Of a DNA stretch of 52,711 nt, positions 1,166 through 39,752 are shown one piece after another. The stretch spans positions 1-52,711 of the forward strand of contig JACRCW010000143.1 of NCBI GenBank assembly GCA_016218805.1, written 5' to 3'. Below the pieces are notes generated by a model that worked only from the letters and a program-made list of their open reading frames with translations, made no database searches and was not told where the DNA came from. Position 1 is the stretch's first letter. Every line of letters begins with the position of its first letter. Made by a program: the position numbers and the translations under genes. The DNA comes from Deltaproteobacteria bacterium (GTDB lineage: Bacteria; Myxococcota; JACRCW01).

Positions 1166-1212
1166 ACCGCGAAGTGGAGCGCGTGCGGCGGGCGGGCTAG
1201 CGTGGAACGCCG

Positions 1213-4938: not shown

Positions 4939-4999
4939 ACCGTGTCCACCCGCGTGCGGGGGAGGCGGGCGTCGCCAGTCGGCGGGTGGGGGATGGTTG

Positions 5000-5067
5000 C
5001 GGCCCGCCGGCCCCTCACCCGCGGCCCTGGCGGGCCGCGACCTCTCCCCGGCTCCGCCGGGGAGAGG
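5000..5067. terminator. Two GC-rich hairpins between convergent genes (putative bidirectional terminator)
   Basis: GCGGCCCGCC(5000-5009)/GGCGGGCCGC(5030-5039), and an 11-bp perfect stem CCTCTCCCCGG(5041-5051)/CCGGGGAGAGG(5057-5067) with a 5-nt loop. These lie between the SPFH stop (4938) and the ychF stop (5075). Confidence 0.35.
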
Positions 5068-5074
5068 TGTTGCA

Positions 5075-6181: not shown

Positions 6182-6301
6182 CTGCCTTCCTGGGTGGTCC
6201 GGGGGGGGCCCCGGGGGGCGCGCCTTGTGGCCCACACGCGCGCCACTTTCAACTGTGCCGGGGTGTCGCCGCCGGGCGCGCTCCGGTATGAGACCGCGCC
6301 C

Positions 6302-12275: not shown

Positions 12276-12430
12276 TCCTCCAAAGCCACCCGCCCCGGCC
12301 CACCGGGCGGCCCATCGGGGGCGCCTGTTTACCGCATGTGGGCCGCGGGGGAAGGGCCGCCCGGGACTGGCGCGGTCTTGCCGGCGGGCGGACGCGTGGT
12401 AGTAGCCGCGCGCGGCGACGGAGCGAGCGC

Positions 12431-13777
12431 ATGGCGCGGTCCACACAGGAATCCCACGGCGGCCCGCGCATGCTGGCGGCGCGCGTCCTGCACCGCGTGG
12501 TGGAGGAGGACGCGTACGTGGCGCTGGCGCTGGACGCGGCGCTGGGGCGGGCGGGCACGCTGGCGGCGCCGGACCGCGGGCTGGCCACGGAGCTGGTGTA
12601 CGGGACGCTGCGCCACCTGGCCCGGCTGGACGCCGCGCTGGGCCAGGCCTGTACGCGGCCGCTCAAGAAGGTGGACGCGCTGCTGCTGTGCCACGCGCGC
12701 GTGGGCGCATACGAAATGCTGGCCCTGGGCACCCCCGACCACGCAGCAGTGAATGAAGCGGTCACCGCCGCCCGGCGCAGCCGTGGGCCGGGCGCGGGGG
12801 GATTCCTCAACGGCGTGTTGCGCGGGCTGGCGCGGCTGCGGGACTCCGGGGCGCTGGCGCCCTCCCCGTCTGACGACACGGCGGCGGTGGTGGCGCGCAC
12901 GGGCGTGCCCGCCTGGCTGGTGGAGGACGTGCGGGCGCGGCTGGGACCAGCGGAAGCGGCGGCCTTTGCGGCCCAGTCACTGGAACGGCCGCGGGTGCAC
13001 CTGTGCGTGCCACGGCCCGGGGACCGGGACGCCACGGCGGCGCTGCTGGTGGGTGCGGGTGTGGAGGCGGAGGCGCACCCGTGGTGCGCCACGGGCGTGG
13101 TGCTGGAGCCGGGCAGCGGCTCCTGGGAGAAGCTGGAAGGGATCGTGGGAACGCGCGCGTTGGTGCAGAACGTGTCCAGCCAGTGCGTGGCCGGCTGGGC
13201 AGCGCGCGTGGCGGGGACCGGCGCGGTGCTGGACCTGTGCGCGGCGCCGGGCGGCAAGTCCTCCGTGCTGCGCGCGGCCGGCGCGGACGTCACGGCGGTG
13301 GACGTGCACGTGGACAAGCTGCACCTGGCGCGCAAGCAGTGGGCGCGGCTGGGGCTGGCGGTGCGTGCGGTGGCGGCGGACGGGACGCGGCCGCCGTTCG
13401 CGGACGGAGCGTTCCCCGTGGTGCTGCTGGACGCGCCGTGTACGGGCAGCGGGCTGTTGGCGCGGCGGCCGGAGATGAAGCTGCGCCGCGGTGAGGACGT
13501 GCTGGCGCGCCTGGTGGCGCTGCAGCGCGGGCTGCTGGACGCGGCGGCGGGGCTGGTCAGCCCCGGCGGGAGCCTGTTGTACAGCGTGTGCTCGGTGTCC
13601 AACGCGGAGGGGCCGGCCCAGGTGGACGCGTTCCTGGCGCGCCACCCGTCCTTCCGGCGCGCGGCCTGCGCCTTGCCGGTGCCGGAGGACGCCCTGGAGG
13701 AGGGCGCGCTGGCGTTGTGGCCGCACCGGCACGGCGTGGACGGTTTCTACGCGGCGCGTTTGCAGCGCGGCATCTGA
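12431..13777 (+). CDS. rsmB: 16S rRNA (cytosine-C5) methyltransferase RsmB/Sun (NusB-like N-domain + SAM MTase)
   Basis: MARSTQESHGGPRMLAARVLHRVVEEDAYV... is the NusB-like domain. ...VLDLCAAPGGKS (SAM motif), ...VVLLDAPCTGSGLLARRPEMK (PC motif) and ...SLLYSVCSVSNAEG (TC motif) identify the methyltransferase. Confidence 0.85.
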   Translation: MARSTQESHGGPRMLAARVLHRVVEEDAYVALALDAALGRAGTLAAPDRGLATELVYGTLRHLARLDAALGQACTRPLKKVDALLLCHARVGAYEMLALGTPDHAAVNEAVTAARRSRGPGAGGFLNGVLRGLARLRDSGALAPSPSDDTAAVVARTGVPAWLVEDVRARLGPAEAAAFAAQSLERPRVHLCVPRPGDRDATAALLVGAGVEAEAHPWCATGVVLEPGSGSWEKLEGIVGTRALVQNVSSQCVAGWAARVAGTGAVLDLCAAPGGKSSVLRAAGADVTAVDVHVDKLHLARKQWARLGLAVRAVAADGTRPPFADGAFPVVLLDAPCTGSGLLARRPEMKLRRGEDVLARLVALQRGLLDAAAGLVSPGGSLLYSVCSVSNAEGPAQVDAFLARHPSFRRAACALPVPEDALEEGALALWPHRHGVDGFYAARLQRGI

Positions 13778-13781
13778 GCGC

Positions 13782-14660
13782 TCACCGCCCGGGACGCACC
13801 AGGTACAGCGCGGGGGCCCGCGCGCTCAGCGTGAGCACGTCCCCCATGCCCACGGGGAAGCGCAGGTGGGAGCCGTCCACAAACACGGCGCCCTCGCGCA
13901 TGCCGCTGATGAAGCGCAGCAGGCCATGGCTCCCCACAAACCCGCCCACGTGGTGGACCACGGTGCCCGGCGGCGCGTAGGGCTCACGCACGCGATACTG
14001 GAAGCGGCGCGCCTCCATGTCATCCCGCTGGCCACCGGCGGAAAGCACTGCCGCGGTGGAGCCGGCGGCCGTGGCCACCCAGGCGCCGCTGCTCTTCTGT
14101 TCCTCGCGCGCGCGTCCCAGCTGCAGCGTGTAGCGCGAGGTGGCGGCAGGATTGACGTGGCAGAACAGCACGTCATTGAGGACGGGGACGCCCAGGCTGC
14201 GGCCATTGATGGCCACGTCCAGGCGCAGCAGGCGCAGCGGGCGCAGCGTGCGCGCCAGCACGCCCTCCAGCACGTCCGCAAACGTGGCGGCGGTGGCGCC
14301 GGTGAGAAACCCCACGCTGCGCGTGGGGTTGGAGTTCACACCCAGCAGCGGTGTGCGCGCCACGCGGTGGCTGGCGTCCAGCAGCGTGCCGTCCCCGCCC
14401 ACGGTGACGACAAGATCCGCGTGCGAGGTGGACCGCAGGTGCGCGCGGTACACCTCGCGCACGTCCGCCCCGGTGGCGCGGCAGGCGCCAAGCACGGCCT
14501 GAAGGCTGGCGGCGTGCTCCAGGTGGGACTGGGCCATGATGCGGGTCTGCACGGACCCGCGGCGCATCAACGCGCGGACCTTGGGCTCCTTGCGCTCCAG
14601 TGCGTACAACTGGAACGCGCTCTTTTTGTACACAACCAGGATGGTGCGGCGGCGTGCCAT
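13782..14660 (-). CDS. nadK: NAD+ kinase
   Basis: ...ADLVVTVGGDGTLLDASHRV (GGDGT), NDVLF..., ...WVATAAGSTAAVLSAGG, 292 aa. The start lies 7 nt after the stop of the upstream giant gene. Confidence 0.85.
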   Translation of the reverse strand: MARRRTILVVYKKSAFQLYALERKEPKVRALMRRGSVQTRIMAQSHLEHAASLQAVLGACRATGADVREVYRAHLRSTSHADLVVTVGGDGTLLDASHRVARTPLLGVNSNPTRSVGFLTGATAATFADVLEGVLARTLRPLRLLRLDVAINGRSLGVPVLNDVLFCHVNPAATSRYTLQLGRAREEQKSSGAWVATAAGSTAAVLSAGGQRDDMEARRFQYRVREPYAPPGTVVHHVGGFVGSHGLLRFISGMREGAVFVDGSHLRFPVGMGDVLTLSARAPALYLVRPGR

Positions 14661-14667
14661 GGGTGGG

Positions 14668-17600
14668 TCAGGCGCCCGGGCCCTTGCCGCCGCCCGGCTG
14701 CAGGTAGGGGTTCACGGAGATCATCGTCGCGCCGCCTTCGGGCTCAGCCTCCGGGGTGGGGGGCGCCACGGCGGGGCGCGGGCCGGGGGTGGGCGTGGGT
14801 TCCGCGGGCAGGGCCACGCCCGCCTCCAGCAGGGCGCGGGTGAGGCGGTCCACGCGCCCCTGCAGCGCCTGCATCCGGCCCAGGGACTCGCGGCGGATGG
14901 CATCGCGCTCCACGCGCGCCTTCTGGGCTTCCGCGCGCAGCGCCTCCACCTCGCGCCCCGCCTGCGAGGCTTGGGTTGCCTGCTGGGCGGAGGCTGCCGC
15001 GCGGGTCTCCGCGTCCTTGTACTTCTCCTCAAACTGCCGGAGCTTCTGCAGCGCCTGCTGGCGCAGTTTCTCCTTGTCGTCCTGGGCCTGGCGGGCAGCG
15101 GCCTCCGCCCGCCCGCGCGCGGCGTCCAACTCGGCCACGCGTTTCTTGAGCTCATCGCGCTCATTGGCGGCCTGCTGGGTGACGGTCTCCAGGCGGCCCT
15201 GCACCTCAGCCACGTGGTCCTTGCCGGCGCGGTCCGCCTGCTCCACGGCTTTCTGCAGTTCCTGCGCACGCCGCTCCAGCTGCTGCGCCTTGGCCACCAG
15301 CTGGGTGCGCGCGCGCTCCAGTTCCTCGCGCTCACGGGTCCGCGCGCCCAGGTCCGCTTCCAGCTGGGCGGCCCGTTCACGCTCCGCGGCGTGCGCGGCC
15401 TCCAGCTGCGTGCGGGCCAGCGTCTCCTGTTCCAGGCGCGCTTGCGCGCGCTCCACCTCGTGCTGCTTGTCCTCAATCTTCTTGCGCGCCGTCTCCAGGG
15501 ACGCGGCGGTCTCCTTCTGCGCGGCCTCGGCGCGGGAGCGCTCCTCCAGGGACTTCTGCCGCAGGCCGCCCTCGGTGGAGCGCGCGGCCTTCTGCGCCTC
15601 CAGCTCGGCGCGCAGCTCATTGACGGACTCCTCCAGCTCCGTCTTCTGCAGGCTCATCACCTGGTGGGAATTCTCCAGCTGGGCCACCCGGCCGCGCGTC
15701 TCCACCAGCTGCCGGTTGAGCGCCGCCTCGCGCGCGGTGACGTCCTTGCGCTCGCGGACCTGCTCGTGGGTCGCATCCTCCAGCTGCTTGATGCGGTCCT
15801 TCAGCTGGGAGGCGGTCTGCGCGTTGTCGTCACGTTCCTTGCGTGCCTGCGCCAGTTCGTCGGCCACCCCGCGTGCGCGCTCCGCCTCCGCGCGTGCCTG
15901 GCGTTGTGCCTCGGCCACCGCGGCCTGCGCCTTCTCCCGCACCTGCTGTTCGCTGGCCTGCACCGCGCGCAGCTTGTCGGCGCGTTCGCCGGCCAGTGTC
16001 TCGGCCTGCTTGAGGGCCACCTGGAGTTCGCCCAGGCGGACCTGCAGTCCCTCGCGCTCCGTCTTGAGGGCCTGCATGGCCTGGCCCGCCTGACCCTGGA
16101 CGCGCTCACCGTCGGCCTGCAGGCGTTGCAGGTCCGCCGCCACGGCGGAGGCCTCGGCCAGCGCGCGCTGTGCCTCCTCCAGTTCGCGCTCGCGGCTGCG
16201 CGCGTGCTCGTCGCGCTCGCGCAGGCGCGCTTCCAGCGCCTTGAGGGCCTGGTCGCGCTGCGAAATCGCCTCGCCCAACCGCTGCATCTCCGCCTGCGTC
16301 TGGCTCAGGGCCCGGGTGTTCTCGCCCTGCCGGCCGGCCAACTCCGCCTCGGCCTGCTGGGCGCCGGCCAGCAGCGCCTTGAGGCGCGCCACCTCGGATG
16401 ACAACTCGCGCGCGGAGGCGCGCGCCTCGTCCAGCTCCGCCTGCAGGCGCGCCAGCGCATCCCGGGCCTGGTCGCGCTCTTCGGCGCGCGCGGCCACGGC
16501 CCGCCGCTCGCCCTCCAGTTCCTGCGCGGCGGACGCCAGGCGCGCCTGCAGCCGCTCCACCTCCGCGGCGCGCGTCTCCAGGTCCGCCTCCCGCGCGCGG
16601 ACGGCGGCGCGGGCGTCCTCCAGCTCCCGCCGCGCCGCGGCCACCTGCGCCTCGCGCGCGGCCAGGTCCACCTGCAGGACCTTCTCGCGCGCCTCCACCT
16701 CACCGCGCTCCCGCTCCACGTCACGGACCTGCGCCTCCAGCGCCTGCAGGCCCGCGTCCCGCTGCGCCACCTCCTGCCGCAGGCGCGCGGCCCCGGCCCG
16801 CTCCTCCTCAATGCGCGCCTGCAGGCCGCGCTCCCGGTCAGCCTGCGTGCGCACATCCTCGTCGGCCTTCAGCAGGGACTGTTCCAGCCCCTCAATGGCG
16901 GCCTGCTTGTCGGCCAGCTGCCCCTTGAGCCCGGCCATCTCCTCGTTGAGGTGGACAATGTCCGCCTGCAGCCCGCGGAGGTCCCGCTCCTTTTGTTGGA
17001 TGGCGGCGTGCGCCTCATTGAGGCGCCCGCGCTGGGCCTGGAACGCCTCGTCACCGCGGGTGACCTGCTGGTGCAGCAGCTGCCGCCCCTGTTCCAGCTC
17101 CTCAATCTCCCCCACCTTGCGCTGGACGGAGGCCTCCAGGTTCTTGAGCTCCAGCGCGCGCGCACGCAGTGCCTCCTGCTGCGCGTTGATCTCCTCCTGG
17201 AGGCGCTCCACCTCCTCGGTGCGGGCGCGAACCTCCGCCCGCAGCGCGGTGAGCTGCCCATCGCGCTGCACCAGCGTGTGCTCGCGGTCCTCCAGGCGGA
17301 TGTTCAACGCACGCAGCTGCGCCTGCTCCGCCCCCAGCGCGCTGTCCAGCGCGGCGTGCGCCTCCGCGGCCTCATCCAGTTTCTGCCCCAGCTCGCGCAG
17401 CGAAAGGTCCCGCGCCTCAATCTGCTTCTCCAGGCCGGCGCGGCGCTCGTTGGCCAGCGCCAGCTTGTTGGACTCGTCGGCCAGCCGGCGCTCCAACTCG
17501 CCCAGGCGCGCCTCGCGCTCGCGCATGGCGGTCTCTGCCGCCTCCTGCATGCGGCGGGTCTCGCCCTCCTGGTTGGACTGGACGTCCTTGGCCTCCTCCA

Positions 17601-19524
17601 GCCGCAGCTCGCGGCCGTGCAGCTCGTCCTGCAGGCGTTCCACGTCCGCGGTCAGCCCGTGGATGCGGTCCTCCAGGGCGGCGGTGTCCCGCAGGCGCAC
17701 GTGGTTCACTGCGCCGGTGGCGGCGCGCGCTGCCACCACGTCTTCCTCCAGCTCGCGGACCAGTTGCTCCGCCGCCAGCGTCTCGCGGTCCAGCAGCGCC
17801 TGCAGTGCCTGCCGTTCCTCGCTCTCGCGCCGGTGCAGGACGGTGAGCCGGGCAATCTCGTCGTCGCGCTCGGCGATGGCGCGGACCAGCCACGCCTCCA
17901 CGCGGCGCATGCGGTCGTGCCAGGCCGCCCGGGCGTTGTCCGCGCAGTGCAGGGCCTGCTCGGCGGCCAGCATGTCGTCGTGGAAGTCGCGCTCACGCTG
18001 GCGCAGCGTGCGCTCCAGCTGGCGGGTGCGCGCGGACAGGTCATGGATGCGCGCGTACAGCACGCCGCGGGTCAGCGTGACGGCGTGGAACAGTTCCCGG
18101 CTGTCGGCGGTCTCCTCATCGCGCGAGCGCAGCAGCACCGCCACGCGCGTCTCAGCGCGGGCCAGCGCGGTGCGCGCCTGGTGCAGGGCACCGCGCGTGT
18201 CATCCAGGCGCTGGTAGAGGTCCCCCAGGATGCCGGCGCCGTGCGCCACGGTGCGTTGCAGGCGTGCGTCCAGCTCGCGGTACGCGCCCTCCCACTCGTA
18301 GATGCGGGCGACGAGTTGCTGCTTCATCGTCTCCGCGGCGGCTTCCAGCTCGCGGCGCTCGCGGCGCAGCGCAAACACCTCCTTCTCCTTGGCCGCCACA
18401 ACCTCAATGAGGTCCTTCTCCATCATCACGCGCTCGGTGAGCATGCCCTCCACCGACGCGCCAAGCTCCTTCTCCTTGTCCGCCAGCGCCGCCTGCAGCC
18501 GCTGCACCTCACGGGTCAGCTCGTTCATTTGGACTATGTAGCTCTCAACCTCGCTCTCCTTCTGCGCGACGCGCGACTCCGCGCCCTGGATTTCCGCCTC
18601 CTTGGCGCGCCACAGGCGGGCCAGCCGCTGCAAGTCCCGCTCGCGTTCACGCAGCTTGTCCCGGAGGAACTGCGTGCGGGAGTCCGCGGCCTCCTGGGAC
18701 CCGCGCGCCCCCGTCCCCAAGGCGTCCGTGGCCACGTCCGCAAACCCGCCCGCGCCCAGCGAGCCGAACAACCGCTCCACACACGCGAGCTCAGTGGGAT
18801 CCACCGCGGGGCCGCCGCGGCCCGCGGAGGGCGCGCCCGGACGGGGCAGGCCCGGGTCCACGCCGGGCGGCGCCGGCAGGCCCGCCGTGACCGCCGCGGC
18901 CGGCGCCTCCAGGGCGTCCAGTCCGCCGGCCAGCTCATCCGCGGAGGGCATCTCCATCCCGGGGTCCGTGACCTCCGGCAGCGGGGGCAGCGGCGGCAGG
19001 TCCGCGGTGGGGTCCCGCTCCGGGATGGCCACGTCCGCCATGGCGCTCTGCACCCACGGGCCGCCCGGAGACACGCTGCGCCGCAGCCGCGGCGGCTCCA
19101 TGGGCCCGCCGCCCGCGGCCTCCACCAGCGCGCGGTGGCTCTGGGCGCGCTCCGCCAGGCTGCGGATGGCCGTCTCCAGGTCCGCACGTGAGGCGGGCAG
19201 CATCAGGTAGTGGTCCGCGCGTGCAGGTGACCCGCGGTGCCGCTCCACGGCGTCACGCGTGGCGTCAGAAGTGGTCAGCAGGATGGGCAGCGCCTTGTGC
19301 TGCGCGTTCTTGCGCAACCGCCCCACCAGCGCAAAACCCGTCGCCCCGCTGCGCTCGTGCCGCAGCATCACAATGTCCGGCCGGATGCGGTCCACCTCCT
19401 CGGTGGGGTCGGACCCCGCAAACACCACGACGTCCAGCTCCAGCCCGTCGATCTCGCGCAACGCCGCTTCCTGCGAGCGGGCCGTGCCGCTGTCCGGTTC
19501 GGCGAGGAGGACGGTGAGCGCCAT
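14668..19524 (-). CDS. AglZ/FrzS-like protein: N-terminal pseudo-receiver domain + ~1450-aa Glu/Arg/Ala-rich coiled coil
   Basis: MALTVLLAEPDSG...RPDIVMLRHERSG...LPILLTTSD has a receiver fold, but the phospho-acceptor Asp position is Arg (DIVMLR) and the acidic pair is EPD. The remainder is a continuous heptad-like ER/QA-rich coiled coil. The C-terminus is a Pro-rich tail ...PEPEGGATMISVNPYLQPGGGKGPGA. Confidence 0.75.
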   Translation of the reverse strand: MALTVLLAEPDSGTARSQEAALREIDGLELDVVVFAGSDPTEEVDRIRPDIVMLRHERSGATGFALVGRLRKNAQHKALPILLTTSDATRDAVERHRGSPARADHYLMLPASRADLETAIRSLAERAQSHRALVEAAGGGPMEPPRLRRSVSPGGPWVQSAMADVAIPERDPTADLPPLPPLPEVTDPGMEMPSADELAGGLDALEAPAAAVTAGLPAPPGVDPGLPRPGAPSAGRGGPAVDPTELACVERLFGSLGAGGFADVATDALGTGARGSQEAADSRTQFLRDKLRERERDLQRLARLWRAKEAEIQGAESRVAQKESEVESYIVQMNELTREVQRLQAALADKEKELGASVEGMLTERVMMEKDLIEVVAAKEKEVFALRRERRELEAAAETMKQQLVARIYEWEGAYRELDARLQRTVAHGAGILGDLYQRLDDTRGALHQARTALARAETRVAVLLRSRDEETADSRELFHAVTLTRGVLYARIHDLSARTRQLERTLRQRERDFHDDMLAAEQALHCADNARAAWHDRMRRVEAWLVRAIAERDDEIARLTVLHRRESEERQALQALLDRETLAAEQLVRELEEDVVAARAATGAVNHVRLRDTAALEDRIHGLTADVERLQDELHGRELRLEEAKDVQSNQEGETRRMQEAAETAMREREARLGELERRLADESNKLALANERRAGLEKQIEARDLSLRELGQKLDEAAEAHAALDSALGAEQAQLRALNIRLEDREHTLVQRDGQLTALRAEVRARTEEVERLQEEINAQQEALRARALELKNLEASVQRKVGEIEELEQGRQLLHQQVTRGDEAFQAQRGRLNEAHAAIQQKERDLRGLQADIVHLNEEMAGLKGQLADKQAAIEGLEQSLLKADEDVRTQADRERGLQARIEEERAGAARLRQEVAQRDAGLQALEAQVRDVERERGEVEAREKVLQVDLAAREAQVAAARRELEDARAAVRAREADLETRAAEVERLQARLASAAQELEGERRAVAARAEERDQARDALARLQAELDEARASARELSSEVARLKALLAGAQQAEAELAGRQGENTRALSQTQAEMQRLGEAISQRDQALKALEARLRERDEHARSRERELEEAQRALAEASAVAADLQRLQADGERVQGQAGQAMQALKTEREGLQVRLGELQVALKQAETLAGERADKLRAVQASEQQVREKAQAAVAEAQRQARAEAERARGVADELAQARKERDDNAQTASQLKDRIKQLEDATHEQVRERKDVTAREAALNRQLVETRGRVAQLENSHQVMSLQKTELEESVNELRAELEAQKAARSTEGGLRQKSLEERSRAEAAQKETAASLETARKKIEDKQHEVERAQARLEQETLARTQLEAAHAAERERAAQLEADLGARTREREELERARTQLVAKAQQLERRAQELQKAVEQADRAGKDHVAEVQGRLETVTQQAANERDELKKRVAELDAARGRAEAAARQAQDDKEKLRQQALQKLRQFEEKYKDAETRAAASAQQATQASQAGREVEALRAEAQKARVERDAIRRESLGRMQALQGRVDRLTRALLEAGVALPAEPTPTPGPRPAVAPPTPEAEPEGGATMISVNPYLQPGGGKGPGA

Positions 19525-19744
19525 GGGGTGGGGTACGCCTTCCGTGATCGCCCCCGGGGGGCCCGGGGGTCAACCACCCTACCAAGCCCGGCCGGGCGCG
19601 CCCCAGCCCCGCGCCACCGCGGGCGCCGGCGGGGACACGGCGGGTGAAGGGCGCCGGGCGGAATGGCACAGCCAACCCGGCGCCGGCGGGCTGTTTCCTC
19701 GCCCCCGAACGGCGGGCAGTCAGGAAGTGATCGGCGCGCTCGTC

Positions 19745-20278
19745 CTACTGCAATTCCACGGTCACCCCGGGCGTAAGACCGACAAGCGTGACGCCGTTCA
19801 GATCAACGGCGGCAAACCCGTGTGCGGAGAAGTCCGCTGCCGTCACCGTCGTGCCGGACGCGAGGTCGCAACCCACGGTAGCGAACTCTCCGGTGCCGAA
19901 CCCGATAGGGTTGACCACCTTGAGCGCAACGGTGCGGGTGCTCAACGTGTACGTTCCCATCGCCAGCGCACTTGCGCCCGCCGCCACGCCTGACGCCGTG
20001 GCGATGCCCGGATCCACAACGAGCACGCGCTCGTTCACGCTGTCGGGGGTTGCCTTGACCGAAACGCCCGCCGGCAGCGAGACCGTGATGTCAATCCCAC
20101 CGATCAACGCGCCCGATGCCAGGCTGCCCGACGTCGTGAGCTTCACGATGGCCTTGGTGGGCCCCGCGGGCGACGGTTGAGGGCCGCGGCAATTGCAGCC
20201 GGCGAGGCTCATGGCACCCAGGACGCCCAAAGCAAGAAGATGCCGTGTCATCGTGAGGTATTGCATCGGGTTTCCCAT
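19745..20278 (-). CDS. Small secreted beta-rich lipoprotein (function unknown)
   Basis: Signal peptide ...MTRHLLALGVLGAMSLAGC carries a lipobox (LAGC). The mature part is Gly/Thr/Val-rich. The start is ambiguous between M12, M16 and M21 of the table ORF. The gene lies 26-60 nt downstream of the giant adhesin gene. Confidence 0.55.
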   Translation of the reverse strand: MGNPMQYLTMTRHLLALGVLGAMSLAGCNCRGPQPSPAGPTKAIVKLTTSGSLASGALIGGIDITVSLPAGVSVKATPDSVNERVLVVDPGIATASGVAAGASALAMGTYTLSTRTVALKVVNPIGFGTGEFATVGCDLASGTTVTAADFSAHGFAAVDLNGVTLVGLTPGVTVELQ

Positions 20279-20304
20279 TCCATGCTCCCGGTTGTGCATC
20301 GGAC

Positions 20305-23300
20305 TCACCACGTGACCAGCCCCGCTGCTCGCCTGAGGATCACAACAACGTCTCCGGTATCAATGACGCCGTCGGAGGCAGGGGTTCCGCCGACCAGCGG
20401 GGCCACGTCGCCTCTCGCAAGATCCGTCGGCGATGCCACATCCAGTCCCGACGCGATGCGCAGGGCCTTGAGGCCATCCGCGTTGTCAACCCTGCCGTCT
20501 CCGTTGAGGTCGCCGTCGGGCACGGCGACAAGCTCGTCAGCCAGGCAGTCCGCCGTCGTTCCGCCGTTGAGGCCCGTGCAGGTCCAGGTCCATGGGCCGG
20601 CGCCACTGACGGTGGAGGCAACACCAGTCGCGCATAGGTCGCTGGCGGGCGCTTCGGTGTGCAGCGCGCTGCTTGCGGTACCGCACGCTCCATCCACCGC
20701 GTCGGCGGAAAAGTTGGCCGTGATCGTGTGGCTGGAGACCACATTGTCCAGGATCAGCGGGTTCAGGACAGTTGCGACAAACCCGTTGGTCCCAGTCCAG
20801 TTCAGGAAGTGGTAGCCCGAGTTCGCGGTAGCGGTCACCTGGGTCGTGCTGCCACCGTGGTTCACGGTCTGGCTGGTCGCTCCCGTGATCGTGCCGTTGC
20901 CGTCGCTCAGGAACGTCACGCCATAGGTCTGGATGTTGGCCGAGCAGTTCGCCGTGCTCCCGCCGTATTGCCCCGCGCAGGTCCAGCTCCAAGGGCCCGA
21001 TCCGGCAACGGCCGACGATACGCCGGAACTGCACAGACTCATCGGGGTCGTACCCGCGAGAGTCTGACCATGGTCAGCGCCGCACGCTCCGTTCACGCTG
21101 TCGTGCGCAAAGTTCGCCGTGATCACCATGGCCGCGGTCACGTTGGTCACCACCAGCGGGTTCGCCAACGTCGTCACAAAGCCGCTTGTCCCGGTCCACT
21201 CAACGAAGTGATAACCCGCTGCAGCCAGCGCTTCGATTTCAGCGGCATCGCCGCCATGATTCACGGTCTGGCTGGTTTCGCCCGCGATCGTGCCGTTGCC
21301 GTCGCTCAGGAACGTCACGCCATAGGTCTGGATGCTGGCCGAGCAGTTCGCCGTGCTCCCGCCGTATTGCCCCGCGCAGGTCCAGCTCCAAGGGCCCGAG
21401 CCGGCAACGGCTGACGAAACACCGGAACTGCACAGACTCGTCGGCGTCGTACCCGCAAGAGTCTGACCATGGTCAGCGCCGCACGCTCCGTTCACGTTGT
21501 CATGCGCAAAGCTCGCGGTGATCACCATGGCCGCGGTCACGCCGGTCACGACCAGAGGGTTCGCCAACGTCGTCACAAAGCCGTTTGTCCCGGTCCACTC
21601 AACAAAGTGATATCCCGCTGCGGCCCATGCTTGGACCTCAGAGGCATCGCCGCCATGATTCACGGTCTGGCTGGTCGTCCCCGTGATCGTGCCGTTGCCA
21701 TCGCTCTGGAACGTCACGGCATAGGTCTGGATGGCGGCCGAGCAGTCCGCCGTGGCCCCGCCGTACTGACCCTCGCAGGTCCAGGTCCAAGGACCCAAGC
21801 CGGCCGCAGCCGAGGCAATGCCGGCGCTGCACAGGTTCGTCGGCGAGGTGGTGCCGAGCGTCTGACCATGGTCAGCGCCGCACGCTCCGTCCACTCTGTC
21901 GTGGACGAAGTTCGCGGTGATCTCCATGGCTGCCGTCACGTTGGTCACCACGAGCGGGTTGGCCACCGTGGTCACAAAGCCGTTTGTCCCGGTCCAATCA
22001 ACGAAATGAAAACCCGCCGCAGCCACCGCGCCGACCTCCGAGGCGTCGCCGCCATGCACCACGGTCTGGCTGGTCACGCCGGTGACGGTGCCGTTGCCAC
22101 CGCTCTGGAAGGTCAGGGCATAACTCCGGATGTCGGCCAGGCAGGACGCCGTGCTCCCGCCGTACTGACCCGCGCACGTCCAACTCCAAGGGCCTGAGCC
22201 CGCCACAGCCGAGGCCGTGCCGGCGCCGCACAGGTCCACGGGCGTAGCGGTCAGGGCCGCGCCGTCATCTGCGCCACACTGGCCGTTCACAACGGCGACA
22301 AAGCTCGCCGTCACCTCACCGTCCGCGGTCACGGGCCCGGTCGAGCACGTATAGGTTCTTCCTGACAGGGTCCCGGTGCACCCGGTGACCACGTCCACGC
22401 CGTAGCCGTCGTCGGCCGTAATGGTGAAGGAGGCGGTCTGGTTGTTGGCCACGGCCTGCACTGTGCTGGGGCTGATGCTGCCGCCGCTTCCCGCCGAGGG
22501 CGTCACGTACCAAAGCAGCGTCATCGCTCCCGACGCGACCCAGTTGGAGCTCGCGCCACTCAAGGCGAAGTTGTTGAGTGTCCCATCCTGGGCGCTGGGT
22601 GAGGTCTGCCCCTTGAGCGTGGTTCGGGCCGCGTTGTCCCCGCCTGCAACACCTTCGTCGAACCGGTAGTACGCGACGAGACCGCTCTCGTCGTATGCGA
22701 CCGTGGTGAAGGCTGACGCGAGAATCTCCGCCTGGCTGCGCGCCGTGCTCCAGATACGCACCTCGTCGATGGCCCCCGCGAAGAACCGGTTGTTGAAGTC
22801 GGAGCCGATCATCACCGGATCGGTGTTCGCGGCTGGGACGAAGGACGTGCCCGTGAGCGCGTGCTCCAGGCCGTTCACGTAGACATGCCGGGCTGCGCCG
22901 TCATACACGGCGGCCACGTGCTGCCACCTGCCAGGATGCAGAATCCCCCCGGCGGTCTCCATGCCGTCGAAGTTGATGCCGTCGTAGTTGCCGCTTGCGC
23001 CAAGCCGGAGTGTGTACCCGTTGGCGGACGGTGAGTGGTACTTGGACACAATACCGGCCAGCCACATGAATGCGGCGGGTTTGATCCACGCCTCCACCGT
23101 GTAGCTCGTGGACAGGTCGAGCGCCGTGGCGTCGGGAATACTCACGTGGTCGTTCGTCCCGTCAAAATCCAGGGCGTTTCCCGGGGGCGTCACAAGGTCG
23201 GACAGCTCGGGCCAGGTCAGCTCAACCGCGCCGATATCGCAGGCGCCGTTCTGCGGTCGGACGATTCCTCGCTGGTCATTGTTGAGGCAACTGCCCGCAT

Positions 23301-24846
23301 TGATGGCGGGGCTCCCGGCGAGCAGGGAGCGCGTGAGCGTGAGGCCCCCGTTGTCCTGCAGCGGCCCGAGCAGCGGGGCCTGGCCGTAGACGTCATGGGT
23401 GGTGGTCCCCGTAATCGTGCAATCAGCCGTGTTCCCGATGAGATTGTAGTCGTTCGAGACCAGCGTCCCGCGGCAGTCAGGCCCGCCGCCGGTGGCGGTG
23501 TTGTCGGCGAGAATCGTGTTCTGCGCGCTCGTGCCGACCAGGGTTCCCCTGATGCCGCCGCCCACCTCAGCAGAATTGCCGCTGATCGTGGAGTCGACGA
23601 CGCTGAAAACGTCGTAGCTGAATACGCCGCCTCCGTTGACCGCCGCGGTGTTGCCGCTGATGGTCGAGGCGCTGACCTCGATCTTCCCCAGGTTGGTGAA
23701 GATGCCGCCGCCGCCGCGAGCCGAGTTGCCGCTGATCGTACATTTGATGAGCGCCACGTCGCGCGGCTCCTTCATTTCTCCCCACACGTACAGGCCCCCG
23801 CCCGTCCCCGATGCGGTATTGCCGCTGAGGGTGAGGCTGTCCGCAGCCAGGTAACCCGTGTTGTGGTAGATGCCGGCGCCGTCGGTGGCTGAGTTGTTGC
23901 TGACCGTGCCGCCCACAATGAGCCAACCGTTGACGTTGGTGATGCCTCCGCCCACTTGAGTTGCGGTGTTACCCGTGATGGTCCCGAAGGTCATGGTGGC
24001 GAACGCGCCATAGACCGTATTGGCCATGTAGATGCCGCCGCCCTGCTGCGCGCGGTTGCCGCTGATGGTCGTGGCCGGATTGATGCTGAACGACCCGGAG
24101 GACTTCAGGCCGCCGCCGTTGCCCGTGGCTTGGTTGCCGCTGATCTGGCTGCCGTTGAGCGTCATGCTGGCCGTGCTGGCAATGCCGGCGCCGTCAACCG
24201 CTGAATTGCCGGAGATGACCGAGTCAGTGACCACCGTGTTTGCTGAGACATCCAGACCACCGCCTTGGGCGGCGGAGTTGTTGCTGACAACGGACGTGGT
24301 CAGGGTGAGCGGCCCGGCGCTCAGGATGCCTCCGCCAAACCCCGTGGCGGTGTTTCCGGTGACCCGTGTGTTGACCAGCCGCAGGTTCCCGGTGGCGGTG
24401 TTGTAGATGCCGCCCCCGCCCGCATCCGCGGCGCTGTTCTGCACAACCACGTCCGTCAGGACGAGTGTCGCCCCAGTCAGAATGCCGCCGCCGGCGCTCG
24501 CGGCGCGGCCGTCCGCCACGGTGATGCCCGTAAGGCTTGCGGTGATGGCCTGCTCAAAGCCAAACACTATGGCGGCGTCGTTGCCGGAGACCGTGAGATT
24601 GGCTGACCCCGGCCCGGTGATGGTCAGATTCTTGTCCACGAGGATCCCGCCGCTCGTGAGGGTGATCGTGCCGGACACAGTGACCAGGACGGTGTCCCCC
24701 GCTGCCGCGTCGGCAACGGCCTGACGCAGGGACCCCGGTCCGGAGTCACCCGTGGTGGTCACCGTGTGCGTCGCGGCGTGAGCCGTGCCGCCGCAAACAC
24801 CGCTGCCGATGGTCAGCAGCGCGAGCGTCGAGAGTCCCCTTGTCAT
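20305..24846 (-). CDS. Giant secreted protein: right-handed beta-helix repeats + LamG/ConA-like domain + 5x tandem ~133-aa Cys-linker/Listeria-Bacteroides-type repeats + C-terminal dockerin-like Ca-binding module
   Basis: GAGGAAAG RBS and a signal peptide MTRGLSTLALLTIGSGVCGGTAHA. The beta-helix region repeats units like GGGI.N....L.N..V.GN.A. LamG: LDFDGTNDHVSIPD...YTVEAWIKP...WQHVAAVYDG...DEVRIWS. Repeat unit: ...CGADHGQTL...GPWTWTC.GQYGG.TA.C...IQTY.VTF.SDGNGTI.G.TSQTV.HGGDA.E..A.AA.GYHFV.WTG. The C-terminus DGDLNGDGRVDNADGL is dockerin-like. The start was trimmed to M39 of the table ORF. Confidence 0.8.
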   Translation of the reverse strand: MTRGLSTLALLTIGSGVCGGTAHAATHTVTTTGDSGPGSLRQAVADAAAGDTVLVTVSGTITLTSGGILVDKNLTITGPGSANLTVSGNDAAIVFGFEQAITASLTGITVADGRAASAGGGILTGATLVLTDVVVQNSAADAGGGGIYNTATGNLRLVNTRVTGNTATGFGGGILSAGPLTLTTSVVSNNSAAQGGGLDVSANTVVTDSVISGNSAVDGAGIASTASMTLNGSQISGNQATGNGGGLKSSGSFSINPATTISGNRAQQGGGIYMANTVYGAFATMTFGTITGNTATQVGGGITNVNGWLIVGGTVSNNSATDGAGIYHNTGYLAADSLTLSGNTASGTGGGLYVWGEMKEPRDVALIKCTISGNSARGGGGIFTNLGKIEVSASTISGNTAAVNGGGVFSYDVFSVVDSTISGNSAEVGGGIRGTLVGTSAQNTILADNTATGGGPDCRGTLVSNDYNLIGNTADCTITGTTTHDVYGQAPLLGPLQDNGGLTLTRSLLAGSPAINAGSCLNNDQRGIVRPQNGACDIGAVELTWPELSDLVTPPGNALDFDGTNDHVSIPDATALDLSTSYTVEAWIKPAAFMWLAGIVSKYHSPSANGYTLRLGASGNYDGINFDGMETAGGILHPGRWQHVAAVYDGAARHVYVNGLEHALTGTSFVPAANTDPVMIGSDFNNRFFAGAIDEVRIWSTARSQAEILASAFTTVAYDESGLVAYYRFDEGVAGGDNAARTTLKGQTSPSAQDGTLNNFALSGASSNWVASGAMTLLWYVTPSAGSGGSISPSTVQAVANNQTASFTITADDGYGVDVVTGCTGTLSGRTYTCSTGPVTADGEVTASFVAVVNGQCGADDGAALTATPVDLCGAGTASAVAGSGPWSWTCAGQYGGSTASCLADIRSYALTFQSGGNGTVTGVTSQTVVHGGDASEVGAVAAAGFHFVDWTGTNGFVTTVANPLVVTNVTAAMEITANFVHDRVDGACGADHGQTLGTTSPTNLCSAGIASAAAGLGPWTWTCEGQYGGATADCSAAIQTYAVTFQSDGNGTITGTTSQTVNHGGDASEVQAWAAAGYHFVEWTGTNGFVTTLANPLVVTGVTAAMVITASFAHDNVNGACGADHGQTLAGTTPTSLCSSGVSSAVAGSGPWSWTCAGQYGGSTANCSASIQTYGVTFLSDGNGTIAGETSQTVNHGGDAAEIEALAAAGYHFVEWTGTSGFVTTLANPLVVTNVTAAMVITANFAHDSVNGACGADHGQTLAGTTPMSLCSSGVSSAVAGSGPWSWTCAGQYGGSTANCSANIQTYGVTFLSDGNGTITGATSQTVNHGGSTTQVTATANSGYHFLNWTGTNGFVATVLNPLILDNVVSSHTITANFSADAVDGACGTASSALHTEAPASDLCATGVASTVSGAGPWTWTCTGLNGGTTADCLADELVAVPDGDLNGDGRVDNADGLKALRIASGLDVASPTDLARGDVAPLVGGTPASDGVIDTGDVVVILRRAAGLVTW
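20640..22440. repeat. About 4.5 tandem copies of a 399-bp unit (133 codons) inside the giant adhesin gene, highly similar at DNA level
   Basis: Near-identical segments recur with exact 399-nt spacing, e.g. gtctgaccatggtcagcgccgcacgctccgttcac at 21062 and 21461. The antisense ORFs start at 21034, 21433, 21832 and 22231, a constant +399 step. Outer copies are more diverged; the boundaries are approximate. Confidence 0.75.
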
Positions 24847-25170: not shown

Positions 25171-26556
25171 ATGGAGATGCTGGGACCTTACGCGCTCATT
25201 GACCCGCTGGGGTCCGGCAGCCTGTGCGACGTGTGGCGCGCGGTGCGGCCGGAGGAAGCGCGGCGGGCCCGCTGGCTGGCGGTCAAGCGTCCCAAGCCGG
25301 CCGTGGCGGCCGAACGCGCGTTCGTGGACACCTGGCTGACGCTGGCGCGCACCGCCATGGTCATCCAGCACCCGTTTGTGGTCCCCATCCTGGATGCGGG
25401 CGAGTTCCAGGCGCCGCAAGGCGGCCCGCCGCAGCCCGTGGTGGTGACCGAGGCCGTCACCGGCGCAGCGCTCAACGCGCTGCTCAATCACCTGATGACC
25501 AAGACGCGGGACATCCCGCGCGCGTTTGCGCTGGAGGTGGTGCACCGCGTGCTGGAGGGCCTGGTCCACGTCCACGCCGCCACGGACCCCACCACGGGCG
25601 CGCCGCTGGTCCACGGGGACGTGTGCCCCGCCAATGTGATGGTCTCCATGGACGGCCGCGTGCGCCTGTGTGACCCGGTGCTGGGCCGCGCACGGACCGC
25701 GCTCAGCCGGTTGGAGAACCAGGCGCTGCGCTTCCGCTGGCACTACATGGCGCCCGAAGAGGCCCGCGGCGCCACCCCGGACGCGCGCGCGGACCTGTAC
25801 GCGGTGGGCGTCATGCTGCATGAGATGCTCACCCAGCGGCGCATGCGCCGTGCCAACCGGCCTGAGGAGTTCCAGCAGCTGGTGGCCGCCGGCACCTGGA
25901 CGCCGCTGCAGCAGCTCAACATCCCCACGGACAACGGTCTGGACACGCTGCTGTTCCGCGCGCTGGCCCCGGACCCGGCGGCCCGCTACCCCACCGCGGC
26001 GGCGTTCCTGGCGGACGCGGAGGCGCACATGCGCGCGTTTGGCGTGGAGGTGCCGGCCGCGGCCACCGCGTCCGTCATGGCGCAGGCTTTCCCGCAGGTC
26101 CTACCGGCGGAGGAGACCGCCCGGGCGTTGGCGCGCTCGCTGGCGCCCGCCCCCACCGCTCCCGCCGAAGACGCGCCGGGGGAAGCGGCCCCCGCCGGCC
26201 GGCCGCGCCCAGCGGGGAGACGCAAACCGCCGTCGGATACTGGCAAGAAGCTCCTGATGGCTGTGGGCGGCCTGGCGCTGATGGGGGCGCTGGGCGCCGG
26301 CGTCATCTGGCTGGTGGGACGCCGGCCGGAGACCGCGGCGCGCCCCGCCGCGCCGGTGGAAGCCCCGCGCGACCTGACGCACCTGGTGGGCGGGCGCACG
26401 CAGCAGCACTGGACGGAGCGCCTGGCGGAGATGGACAAGGCGCTGGAAACCGCGCGCCGCGAGGAGCCGGGCCGGGTGCCGGCCATGGAGGCGCTCCGCG
26501 CGGACCTGGTCCGCAAGGGGCAGGCGCTGGGCCTCAAAGGCTACGGCGGGGAGTGA
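25171..26556 (+). CDS. Ser/Thr kinase-like protein with degenerate catalytic motifs (possible pseudokinase), one TM segment
   Basis: Kinase fold: LGSGSLCDVWRA (G-loop), WLAVKRP (Lys), YMAPEE. The catalytic loop is VHGDVCPANVMV (HRD->HGD, Lys->Cys), and DFG is replaced by LCDPV. A TM segment (LLMAVGGLALMGALGAGVIWLV) precedes a C-terminal tail. Confidence 0.8.
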   Translation: MEMLGPYALIDPLGSGSLCDVWRAVRPEEARRARWLAVKRPKPAVAAERAFVDTWLTLARTAMVIQHPFVVPILDAGEFQAPQGGPPQPVVVTEAVTGAALNALLNHLMTKTRDIPRAFALEVVHRVLEGLVHVHAATDPTTGAPLVHGDVCPANVMVSMDGRVRLCDPVLGRARTALSRLENQALRFRWHYMAPEEARGATPDARADLYAVGVMLHEMLTQRRMRRANRPEEFQQLVAAGTWTPLQQLNIPTDNGLDTLLFRALAPDPAARYPTAAAFLADAEAHMRAFGVEVPAAATASVMAQAFPQVLPAEETARALARSLAPAPTAPAEDAPGEAAPAGRPRPAGRRKPPSDTGKKLLMAVGGLALMGALGAGVIWLVGRRPETAARPAAPVEAPRDLTHLVGGRTQQHWTERLAEMDKALETARREEPGRVPAMEALRADLVRKGQALGLKGYGGE

Positions 26557-26559: not shown

Positions 26560-26790
26560 ATGCTGTGGTGGATCGTCGGCGGGATGTTTGCGGGGTTGGG
26601 GGCGGTGATGATGGGCCGCGGGTGGAACTACTTCCTCCACCCCGAGGGCCCGCGCGCACTCAAGCGGCGCGCACGCAACGTGGAGCTGGGCTTCCCCACG
26701 GACATGCGCGTGTTTGGCCGCAAGGTGCGCCGCATGGGCACCATCCTGGTGATCACGGGGGGCGTATTGATCAGCGTGCCGTGGTGGTGA
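26560..26790 (+). CDS. Small membrane protein (2 predicted TM helices), translationally adjacent to the kinase-like gene
   Basis: MLWWIVGGMFAGLGAVMMG...GTILVITGGVLISVPWW. The ATG is 3 nt after the kinase stop, with GGGGAG upstream. The 3' end overlaps the convergent GGDEF gene by 20 nt. Confidence 0.45.
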   Translation: MLWWIVGGMFAGLGAVMMGRGWNYFLHPEGPRALKRRARNVELGFPTDMRVFGRKVRRMGTILVITGGVLISVPWW

Positions 26791-27856
26791 GCGGCCGGTC
26801 CCGCCCCCACACGCGCACCTGGTCCCGCCCGGAGCGCTTGGCCAGGTAGACCATCTGGTCCGCGCATTCGATGAGTTGCTGCTTGTTGATGGCATCATCC
26901 GGGAACGCCGCCACGCCGACGCTGATGGTCACCCGCCCGCCCGGCTGCACGTTCCCGCCCGGGAACGGAAAGCTGGCCACCGCCTCCCGCAGGCGCTCCG
27001 CACGCACAATCGTCCCGTCCTTGGGCGTCTGCGGCAGCACAATGACAAACTCCTCGCCGCCGTAGCGCGCGGGGATGTCCCCCATGCGCCCGCGGAAGCT
27101 GATCTCAGGAATCTCACCGGTGTTGCACAGGATGCGCGCCAGGTCCTTGAGCAGCTTGTCCCCGGCGGGGTGCCCCAGCATGTCGTTGTAGTTCTTGAAG
27201 TGATCCACGTCGAGAAACACCAGGCCAACCGGCGTGTGGTAGCGCGCGCCGCGCGCCAGCTCCTGCGTCAGGGCCTCCTGGAAGAAGCGGTGGTTGTACA
27301 ACCCGGTGAGCCCGTCCCGCAGGGCCAGCTGCTCCAGCTCCGCATTGGCTGCCCGCAGCTCACGCGTGCGCTCCTCCACCTGCCGCTCCAGCCGCCGCTC
27401 CTGCTCCTGCACCGCGGACAGCGCCCGGGCCAGCATGTCGTTCTTCTCGCGCAGCTCCACCACCAGCCGCGCGTTCTCCTCCTCCAGCAGGTTGGCCCGC
27501 ACCGCCTCCGCCACCAGCGCGCGCAGGTCCATCACCCGCAATGGCTTGGAAATGAACCGGTGCACGTGCGCCAGGTTGACCGCGTCGCGCAGGTCCTCCA
27601 CCCGTTCACTGGCGGTGACCAGGATGCGCACCGCCTTGGGCTGCACGTCCCGCGTGGCCGTCAGCAGATTGACGCCCGTGATGCCGGGCATCATGTGGTC
27701 CGCCACCACGCAGTCCACCGGCTGGGTCCGCAACACCTCCAGCGCCGCGGCCCCGTCCGCCGCCGTCATGACCTCATAGTCCTTCTGCAGCGCCGCCTGG
27801 ATCAGGTTGCGAATGTCGGCGTCGTCGTCAACCACCAGCACCCGGAGCTGCCGCAT
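26771..27856 (-). CDS. Response regulator with receiver domain + GGDEF diguanylate cyclase domain
   Basis: MRQLRVLVVDDDADIRNL...DCVVADHMMPGITG (phospho-acceptor Asp present), a coiled-coil linker, then LTGLYNHRFF...RYGGEEF (an intact GGEEF) and KRSGRDQV. The start was trimmed to M30 of the table ORF. Confidence 0.85.
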   Translation of the reverse strand: MRQLRVLVVDDDADIRNLIQAALQKDYEVMTAADGAAALEVLRTQPVDCVVADHMMPGITGVNLLTATRDVQPKAVRILVTASERVEDLRDAVNLAHVHRFISKPLRVMDLRALVAEAVRANLLEEENARLVVELREKNDMLARALSAVQEQERRLERQVEERTRELRAANAELEQLALRDGLTGLYNHRFFQEALTQELARGARYHTPVGLVFLDVDHFKNYNDMLGHPAGDKLLKDLARILCNTGEIPEISFRGRMGDIPARYGGEEFVIVLPQTPKDGTIVRAERLREAVASFPFPGGNVQPGGRVTISVGVAAFPDDAINKQQLIECADQMVYLAKRSGRDQVRVWGRDRPLTTTAR

Positions 27857-28007
27857 GCACCCCACCGTCGTCACGCGGCGGGAGACGCGCTCCCGTGCCG
27901 CCGGCCCTTGCTGCCCCGCATGCCGCGCCAAGTCAACCGCCACCGCCTGCTTCCACCCGGGCCCACGGCCGCGCTAGCTTGCCCGCGCCAGTCACCCTGG
28001 AGCCTCC

Positions 28008-32665: not shown

Positions 32666-32674
32666 GGCATCACC

Positions 32675-34234: not shown

Positions 34235-34235
34235 G

Positions 34236-36062
<1,827 letters not shown>

Positions 36063-36073
36063 TTGTCTCCTCC

Positions 36074-39750: not shown

Positions 39751-39752
39751 GG

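Follow-up and report, generated by a model that had tools for sequence, protein, structure and literature searches.

Layout of the locus and the coiled-coil/nadK pair

The locus described here lies on a 52,711-nucleotide (nt) contig of a Deltaproteobacteria bacterium placed in the Myxococcota (JACRCW010000143.1, assembly GCA_016218805.1), the whole of which was analysed and is referred to below as the window. Four open reading frames (ORFs) follow one another on its minus strand and encode a secreted adhesin, a small lipoprotein, a protein of 1618 amino acids (aa) with a pseudo-receiver domain and a giant coiled coil, and a NAD kinase (nadK). The last two genes form a pair that was also found, adjacent and co-directional, in seven further distinct metagenomic loci, and this NAD-kinase pairing is real and previously undescribed. 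The block as a whole is probably made up of two independent two-gene modules that are co-directional neighbours by chance: module A, an operon of the coiled-coil gene and nadK with an apparent promoter of its own, in which the pairing was kept by descent, and module B, a lineage-specific insertion carrying the adhesin and lipoprotein genes. The features of the block and its two immediate neighbours are as follows.

13782–14660, minus strand: NADK2/NADK3-like NAD(H) kinase gene, 292 aa, second of the conserved pair (Pfam NAD_kinase, PDB match, motifs)
14661–14667, minus strand: 7-nt spacer between the coiled-coil stop and the nadK ATG (direct reading)
14668–19524, minus strand: gene of the pseudo-receiver/coiled-coil giant, 1618 aa, AglZ/FrzS superfamily, LRHER clade (sequence and predicted fold)
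19117–19524, minus strand: pseudo-receiver domain, residues 1–136 (phmmer, AlphaFold model, Foldseek)
18688–19116, minus strand: disordered Pro/Gly/Ala-rich linker, residues 137–279 (model confidence, composition)
18175–18687, minus strand: conserved coiled-coil 'head', residues ~280–450 (conservation, model)
14830–18687, minus strand: continuous heptad coiled coil, residues 280–1565 (periodicity, no proline)
19575–19584, minus strand: TGGTAGGGTG, extended -10-like motif (match to TGNTAGGGTG)
19745–20251, minus strand: small lipoprotein gene, lipobox LAGC, beta-rich mature part of ~150 aa (signal peptide MTRHLLALGVLGAMSLAGC)
20305–24846, minus strand: secreted surface protein (adhesin) gene, 1513 aa from its ATG (signal peptide ending AHA, domain matches)
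20308–20523, minus strand: 72-aa C-terminal dockerin-like tail ending GLVTW (tail comparison, weak dockerin matches)
25171–26556, plus strand: Ser/Thr protein kinase gene, context (Pfam Pkinase)
12251–13777, plus strand: rsmB, 16S rRNA m5C methyltransferase gene convergent with nadK, context (Pfam Methyltr_RsmB-F and NusB)

The four co-directional genes and their close spacing had been described in a sequence-only reading of the window, and direct reading of the sequence agrees with it: all four ORFs are present at these coordinates, the adhesin stop lies 38–53 nt from the lipoprotein ATG, the lipoprotein stop lies 220 nt from the coiled-coil ATG, and the junction between the coiled-coil stop and the nadK ATG reads TGA-CCCACCC-ATG, a gap of 7 nt. 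The frames of the coiled-coil gene and nadK are both supported by a G+C content at third codon positions (GC3) of 0.90–0.92, and the plus-strand ORFs that overlap the block are the usual shadows in high-GC DNA (the window is ~70% GC).

In the seven other loci (L001/L002, L003, which is partial, L004, L005, L007, L012 and L013/L014) the coiled-coil homologues upstream of nadK were verified by tblastn. Across these paired loci the coiled-coil proteins are 40–53% and the NAD kinases ~60–68% identical to those of the window. The two genes overlap by 4 nt (ATGA) in L007, L012, L013 and L014, and are separated by 11–59 nt in L001, L003 and L004. The rsmB gene is a convergent neighbour in L005 as well, and lies nearby in L007. 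The earlier suggestion that nadK is effectively coupled to the coiled-coil gene is therefore upheld by the 7-nt gap and by an arrangement kept in seven further distinct loci, and synteny of the pair extends across the related metagenomic loci. With such a gap, and with ATGA overlaps in relatives, nadK would be expressed from the coiled-coil transcript through translational coupling or re-initiation.

Among 8000 candidates scored, 1973 were NAD kinase homologues at E≤1e-5, and their identities to the window kinase form a tight group at 61–68%, beyond which no value exceeds 51%. Wherever the context of a tight-group member could be read, the gene sits directly downstream of a coiled-coil homologue. 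Relatives at 45–49% identity are not beside such a gene; on two large contigs of Myxococcota/Deltaproteobacteria metagenome-assembled genomes (MAGs; L008 and L009) the uncoupled kinase gene comes immediately after a NUDIX gene or overlaps it, with rpmE, prfA and prmC nearby, and no coiled-coil gene was seen in L015, which carries a distant relative of the kinase.

The 292-aa product scores 45.3 bits against Pfam NAD_kinase (cut-off 25.5), and its best score against the NCBIfam equivalogs of bacterial NadK/PpnK is 54 bits, below their cut-offs of 211–493. Its best match in the PDB is human mitochondrial NADK2 (E=2.5e-10). The motifs GGDGT, GVNS(N/D)P, LND, GSTA and SAGG stand unchanged in every one of 12 clade sequences and 43 outgroup sequences, and the protein is most likely an active NAD(H) kinase. 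Motif 1, PX-GXN(T/S)DP, is specific to NADK2 and NADK3 (Ohashi et al. 2012), and takes the form GVNSNP in the window kinase and GVNSDP in most of its bacterial relatives. The GGDG and NE/D motifs are likewise shared with human NADK2 (C5orf33) and plant NADK3, but the window protein is bacterial, only 292 aa long, and lacks both the additional region of C5orf33 and a targeting peptide. The window kinase belongs to a large bacterial branch (the 1973 homologues above) that shares motif 1 (GVNSDP) with eukaryotic mitochondrial NADK2 and plant NADK3 and is closer to these than to canonical NadK. This branch bears on the prokaryotic origin of the mitochondrial-type enzyme, the provenance of which has been described as uncertain (PMC6675116).

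Two explanations of the pairing were weighed. According to the first, it is an operon arrangement that would have been fixed in the ancestor of the clade and kept by descent, and this is favoured because only five alignment positions separate the coupled kinases from the uncoupled ones (12 against 43 sequences). Inherited operon structure is the simplest reading; the conserved pairing and the enlarged AglZ-type family described below are real and testable. According to the second, the two gene products work together: the coiled-coil protein, as a filament or scaffold, recruits or localises the kinase, or the product or activity of the kinase regulates the scaffold, and the operon has been maintained by selection for co-expression at fixed stoichiometry. 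In its favour, no other arrangement persists throughout the nine loci, in which every flanking gene varies; the coupling is tight, with 4-nt overlaps; and the pairing marks a monophyletic subclade both in the kinase ranking (61–68%, then ≤51%) and in the tree of the coiled-coil proteins. That the pair has been kept at only 40% protein identity while other neighbours change weighs against descent alone, and selection for a functional link could be the cause.

Against such a partnership, the kinase shows no clade-specific remodelling, its motifs being intact and its discriminating positions only five, and its nearest relatives sit in housekeeping neighbourhoods. Sister clades of the coiled-coil protein have other genes downstream: in the two distant loci compared that carry members of the same LRHER clade, the window's arrangement with a following NAD kinase gene was not seen, and the downstream genes are instead one for a GAF-GGDEF protein (L006) and an unknown gene followed by a Ser/Thr kinase gene (L011). 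Within the collection of papers searched, none contains both AglZ and NAD kinase. We know of no scaffold-NAD kinase partnership of such a kind. A dedicated biochemical partnership is less likely than inheritance because the kinase resembles the ordinary NAD kinase of these lineages and bears no sequence sign of a new function, and we regard it as unlikely, although it is the best of the alternatives considered. If the operon reflects inherited gene order only, it is ordinary genome architecture; nevertheless, in one subclade a cytoskeletal-type scaffold is strictly coupled to an NADK2/NADK3-like kinase, a clean association with NADP(H) synthesis that can be put to the test.

The pseudo-receiver/coiled-coil protein and its family

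The N-terminal 136 residues of the coiled-coil protein have as their best PDB match the receiver domain of FrzS (2GKG, E=7.4e-8 with phmmer), followed by PhoB/RpaA at ~2e-4. An AlphaFold model, built from four homologues, predicts a (beta-alpha)5 receiver fold for residues 1–136 with a predicted local distance difference test score (pLDDT) of ~80–87, and the top structural match of this domain in Foldseek is again FrzS (2i6f, TM score 0.86, root-mean-square deviation 2.0, 26% identity). The domain is followed by a poorly conserved linker (residues 137–279, 143 aa; pLDDT ~30, 17% Pro, 15% Gly) and, from residue 277, by a single uninterrupted helix in the model (pLDDT ~90). The first part of this helix, a head segment spanning residues ~280–450 (RERERDLQRLARLW ... 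TERVMMEKDLIEVVAAKEKE ... RIYEWE), is near-invariant among homologues. Proline is absent from residues 244–1572, a stretch of 1329 residues; hydrophobic periodicity peaks at 3.5 and 2.33 residues with 42 times the mean power, and the composition is dominated by A, E, R, L and Q. The coiled coil thus measured is ~1290 aa long (residues 280–1565), or roughly 190 nm if fully extended, and not ~1450 aa as had been estimated; it is flanked by the 143-aa disordered linker on its N-terminal side and by a Pro-rich tail of 53 aa on the other. A Pfam search with the protein gave no significant match.

Residue equivalences were taken from a HMMER alignment combined with the roles given in the FrzS structure paper (PMC1974792). 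Arg55 aligns with FrzS Ala53, the position of the CheY phospho-acceptor Asp57; Pro10 aligns with FrzS Ser10, the Mg-binding position of CheY Asp13; and the position of CheY Lys109 is held by Leu. His96 and Tyr106 correspond to His92 and Tyr102 of FrzS, output-face residues that are essential for FrzS function (PMC1974792). All five positions are invariant across six family members. Judged by these substitutions the scaffold is not phosphorylatable: Arg55 stands in place of Asp57, and neither the Mg-binding Asp nor Lys109 is retained. The FrzS-type output face (His96/Tyr106) is kept, and if the scaffold behaves like FrzS and AglZ it would most likely dock a partner there; the coiled coil of ~190 nm, conserved head included, would then assemble into a dimer or filament and so place this partner in the cell.

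Relatives of the protein were collected by an exhaustive profile hidden Markov model search against 1.84 billion representatives; word-indexed searches with the full coiled-coil protein and with an N-terminal profile were saturated by low-complexity words and gave three and four matches. At E≤1e-30 the exhaustive search retrieved 38 cluster representatives, a number that rises to 167 when the threshold is relaxed to E≤1e-10. A large share of them are 1000–1700 aa long and are covered over both the receiver domain and the head segment, the latter being the best-scoring stretch in most of the long matches. The acceptor site comes in three flavours, VLRHER (as in the window), VLRAELPDQSGF and RAE..GKESGF, all three with Arg at the Asp57 position.

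The second of these flavours could be assigned by means of the AglZ-like/FrzS-like receiver alignment, the second half of which is printed in supplement S7 of Guzzo et al. 2015 (PMC4546325). One family member, P0174, nearly reproduces the Anaeromyxobacter AglZ-like sequence of that alignment (LP.LLYSSDTPPE.LA.HARTPWAANGYLAMPLDTDALR), and another, P0138, is similar to AglZ of M. xanthus (GYLAIPFEMGEL), which identifies the LRAEL flavour as the AglZ-like clade. The window protein is 30–32% identical to these two proteins over the receiver domain and 33–35% identical over the head segment, in 111–139 colinear residues (E=6e-15 and 1e-22). In a rough neighbour-joining tree of the receiver domain and head region, midpoint-rooted and with P0138 and P0174 representing the AglZ-like clade (M. 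xanthus AglZ itself is not among its sequences), the NADK-linked proteins are monophyletic inside the LRHER clade and apart from the LRAEL clade. FrzS-like sequences were absent among the top 150 matches of the family profile. On these sequence comparisons the window protein is a member of the AglZ/FrzS superfamily, closer to AglZ than to FrzS but apparently not an AglZ orthologue, and the LRHER clade, which has no name as yet, stands apart and is made up of uncultured Myxococcota. The earlier recognition, from the sequence, of a FrzS/AglZ architecture in which Arg replaces the phospho-acceptor is thus supported by the best PDB match, by the predicted fold and by homology that reaches beyond the receiver domain.

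The likeness to AglZ (MXAN_2991) and the AglZ-like clade is extensive, and could be taken to mean that the protein is this organism's AglZ orthologue and regulates Agl-Glt gliding (A-motility), in keeping with the gliding-motility role first proposed for it. The architecture is the same, with a non-phosphorylatable N-terminal receiver domain, a linker and a coiled coil of more than 1000 aa; the acceptor position holds Arg and the Lys109 position a hydrophobic residue, as in AglZ-like and not FrzS-like sequences; the motif H-R-x-x-P-x-x-A-D/N-x-Y-L-x-x-P of the published AglZ-like alignment is shared; and the identity of 30–35% runs through the receiver domain and the head segment, with colinear homology (33–35%) over the first 110–140 aa of the coiled coil. 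The protein differs from the AglZ-like clade in its acceptor-site motif, VLRHERSG in place of VLRAELPDQSGF, and is ~200 aa longer than M. xanthus AglZ. The tree places it in the LRHER and not the LRAEL clade, published phylogeny confines AglZ to the Cystobacterineae (PMC4546325), and a genome scan located the family in two uncultured MAGs only. No agl, glt, mgl (including mglA) or pil genes are present among the genes of the 52.7-kb window. Orthology with AglZ, and with it the proposed identity as a gliding regulator of that kind, is improbable on this evidence.

FrzS (MXAN_4149; PDB 2GKG/2I6F) and the window protein have both lost the acceptor Asp and the Mg-binding Asp13 and have kept the His92/Tyr102 pair. 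At the acceptor and Lys109 positions FrzS carries Ala and Lys where the window protein carries Arg and Leu, and its coiled coil is only ~235 residues long (PMC4546325) against ~1290.

AglZ and FrzS are models for the wiring of a Ras-like GTPase to bacterial motility machines. On the basis of 26 sequences they had been traced to one duplication within the Cystobacterineae (PMC4546325). The search results widen the family: giant AglZ-type proteins of uncultured lineages fall into no fewer than three deep clades (LRHER, LRAEL, which is the AglZ-like clade, and RAE..GKESGF; P0128–P0273), and the head segment that they share beside the pseudo-receiver is a candidate functional region that has so far not been mapped.

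The adhesin/lipoprotein genes and the proposed separation into two modules

In the adhesin, a Laminin_G_3 domain (residues 562–708, E=1.9e-29), four copies of Flg_new_2 (E=6.7e-40), List_Bact_rpt, a choice-of-anchor Q domain (NF041518, residues 491–543, 80.2 bits against a cut-off of 25) and the Chlamydia-type repeats Chlam_PMP and POMP_repeat were all matched. Four to five 133-aa Cys-pair modules, each with an InlB-B-repeat (Flg_new_2) domain, are encoded by a 399-bp tandem array at 20861–22212 (3.4 copies, 85% match), and a fifth, degenerate copy starts at 20540. The LamG domain and Listeria-Bacteroides-type repeats named in the sequence-only reading were accordingly recovered by profile search, whereas its pectate-lyase-like beta-helix appears as PMP repeats and choice-of-anchor Q with no match to Pfam Beta_helix, and its dockerin is sub-threshold: the tail scores 14.3 bits against Dockerin_1 (cut-off 22.9, E=0.048) and E=0.26 against dockerin_GC. 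The four best PDB profile matches of the tail are all dockerins (E=0.011–0.47). A second large adhesin with a different anchor is encoded elsewhere in the window (41545–47874, plus strand); this Big_9/cadherin-like surface protein of 2109 aa carries at its end a MYXO-CTERM sorting signal (TIGR03901, 23.7 bits, cut-off 20), which supports a Myxococcota origin of the contig.

Neither the adhesin nor the lipoprotein gene was present in the five related loci with a readable upstream region (L001/L002, L003, L004, L007 and L012). GC content is 0.64–0.69 over 19.9–25.1 kb and at least 0.73 on both sides, and GC3 is 0.82 in the two genes against 0.90–0.92 in the coiled-coil and nadK genes. The Ser/Thr kinase gene upstream of the adhesin gene (25171–26556) has an orthologue in L004 (824–2239; 42% identity over 332 aa, E=1e-63), which there divergently adjoins the coiled-coil gene directly. 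Since the pair is absent from relatives, lower in GC and located where L004 has kinase and coiled-coil genes side by side, it looks from sequence like a 5.3-kb insertion between these two genes, and module B (19745–24846) would be a compositionally distinct insertion specific to this lineage.

The lipoprotein had no sequence match in Pfam, NCBIfam or the PDB, even with a four-sequence profile. A metagenome scan found homologues at 45–49% identity in L016–L019. In L016–L018, contigs of a 55%-GC organism, the homologue lies directly downstream of a gene ending in a dockerin-like tail that is 51% identical to the window tail (...GDVAPLVNGQPDPDGTIDIGDAVVILRKAIGLLTW), the rest of the protein consisting of Dicty_CTDC Cys-rich repeats. 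The passenger protein is thus a different one, and the conserved unit is therefore the tail plus the lipoprotein. This cassette was seen upstream of rimP-nusA (L016 1–735, L017 1–846, L018 1–1170). The arrangement suggests that the lipoprotein receives or anchors the adhesin tail, which would then probably be held at the cell surface by the lipoprotein encoded just downstream. The cohesin-dockerin system offers a parallel in the duplicated Ca-loop-like tail, in PDB profile matches that are only to dockerins and in the small secreted partner encoded after it, and choice-of-anchor surface proteins another in the adhesin's choice-of-anchor Q domain. Unlike in cohesin-dockerin pairs, however, the tail falls below the Dockerin_1 and dockerin_GC thresholds, the lipoprotein has no detectable cohesin similarity, and the host is a diderm and not a cellulosome-forming Firmicute.

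The boldest reading is that in this clade an NADK2-like NAD(H) kinase is positioned or regulated by a ~190-nm AglZ-type cytoskeletal scaffold and that, separately, the tail and lipoprotein are an unrecognised, portable anchoring cassette of cohesin-dockerin style in diderms. We hold it to be somewhat more doubtful than the partnership discussed above. If it were true, NADP(H) synthesis would be organised in space and linked to a scaffold of the polarity or motility type, and the cassette, if an anchor, would be a new way of displaying surface proteins.

Aligning the regions upstream of the coiled-coil gene revealed the motif TGNTAGGGTG on the coding strand 26–71 nt upstream of the start in all six contigs with upstream DNA (L001, L002, L003, L004, L007 and L012). 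In the window, TGGTAGGGTG is the sole match to TGNTAGGGTG in 52.7 kb (0.10 expected) and sits 51–60 nt upstream of the coiled-coil ATG. Its form is what we take to be an extended -10 element (TG-n-TAGGGT) of high-GC bacteria, and the coiled-coil/nadK pair would therefore have its own promoter inside the 220-nt gap, making module A (13782–19584) one operon with TGGTAGGGTG as its apparent extended -10-like element. No promoters came out of a scan for the sigma-70 consensus, and Rfam and tRNA scans of the region gave no match.

Several points weigh against this two-module interpretation and its parts. We infer both the promoter role of TGNTAGGGTG and the translational coupling of nadK from sequence. 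The gap between the lipoprotein and coiled-coil genes showed nothing resembling a terminator, terminator-like sites being at chance level, and read-through from module B into the coiled-coil gene is possible for this reason; the intergenic RNA folds no better than shuffles (z=0.45). Direct or inverted repeats and mobility genes flanking the adhesin island were looked for and none were seen. The tail/lipoprotein pairing is present in two independent lineages only, given that L016–L018 are near-identical and L019 has no visible upstream gene. The lipoprotein has no detectable cohesin similarity in Pfam, NCBIfam or PDB sequence searches, and its single-sequence model, with a pLDDT of 31, is unusable.

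Could all four genes nevertheless be one functional unit, with the adhesin and lipoprotein co-regulated with the motility-type scaffold? All four point the same way with little space between them, and the 220-nt gap has no terminator-like hairpin. Yet the adhesin and lipoprotein are missing from all five related loci in which the upstream sequence could be read, the break in composition coincides exactly with the module borders, a conserved promoter-like motif lies inside the gap, and the tail/lipoprotein pair travels independently in an unrelated organism. A single unit is consequently very improbable. The functional link between adhesin and motility protein that had been envisaged likewise loses its footing, given the absence of the two genes from related loci, their differing GC, the promoter-like motif of the coiled-coil gene and the adjoining Ser/Thr kinase gene in L004.

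Weakest of all, with next to no likelihood, is the idea that the coiled-coil protein is a chromosome protein of SMC/RecN type and that its adjacency to nadK echoes the widespread nadK-recN neighbourhood: an NCBIfam SMC model does score 87 bits over the coiled coil, and recN is the next gene after nadK in E. coli K-12 (b2615-b2616), so that in both cases a NAD kinase gene adjoins one for a long coiled-coil protein, but the SMC/Rad50 models match coiled-coil segments only and far below their cut-offs (567 for SMC), the N-terminus is a receiver fold and not a Walker-A head, a C-terminal ATPase head is lacking, the gene order is reversed, and an E. coli RecN query found no match within the window. 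RecN is an SMC-type ATPase without sequence similarity to the pseudo-receiver protein; the resemblance of the neighbourhoods is superficial, and the candidate was ruled out by domain architecture. An SMC-like or other family with an intact receiver Asp had been named as the finding that would overturn the FrzS/AglZ assignment; ATPase heads are absent and Arg is at the acceptor position.

Other genes of the window

Genes related to cyclic di-GMP recur near coiled-coil genes of the LRHER clade: a receiver-GGDEF gene in the window (26771–27943, minus strand), the GAF-GGDEF gene directly downstream in L006 (5600–6406), and a gene for an MshEN/HEAT protein divergently upstream in L011 (4855–7761). 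This recurrence may be coincidence. Ser/Thr kinase genes near the scaffold gene in the window, L004 and L011 raised the idea that the two are linked, which was set aside, such kinases being abundant here. The window has three Ser/Thr protein kinase genes (1201–3276 and 25171–26556 on the plus strand and 47949–49694 on the minus strand), two of them with PEGA domains, and because there are three in 52.7 kb their adjacency to the coiled-coil gene was not taken as meaningful.

A complex I (nuo) operon is located at 31250–41065 on the minus strand of the window, and in L013 nuoC/nuoD lie immediately downstream of the coupled nadK. Finally, an 1815-aa ORF at 4775–10222 on the plus strand, a stop-to-stop frame, combines Toprim/Topoisom_bac domains (type IA topoisomerase) with DEAD, Helicase_C, RecQ_Zn_bind and HRDC domains, and from this domain content its product looks like a topoisomerase III-RecQ fusion in one polypeptide.

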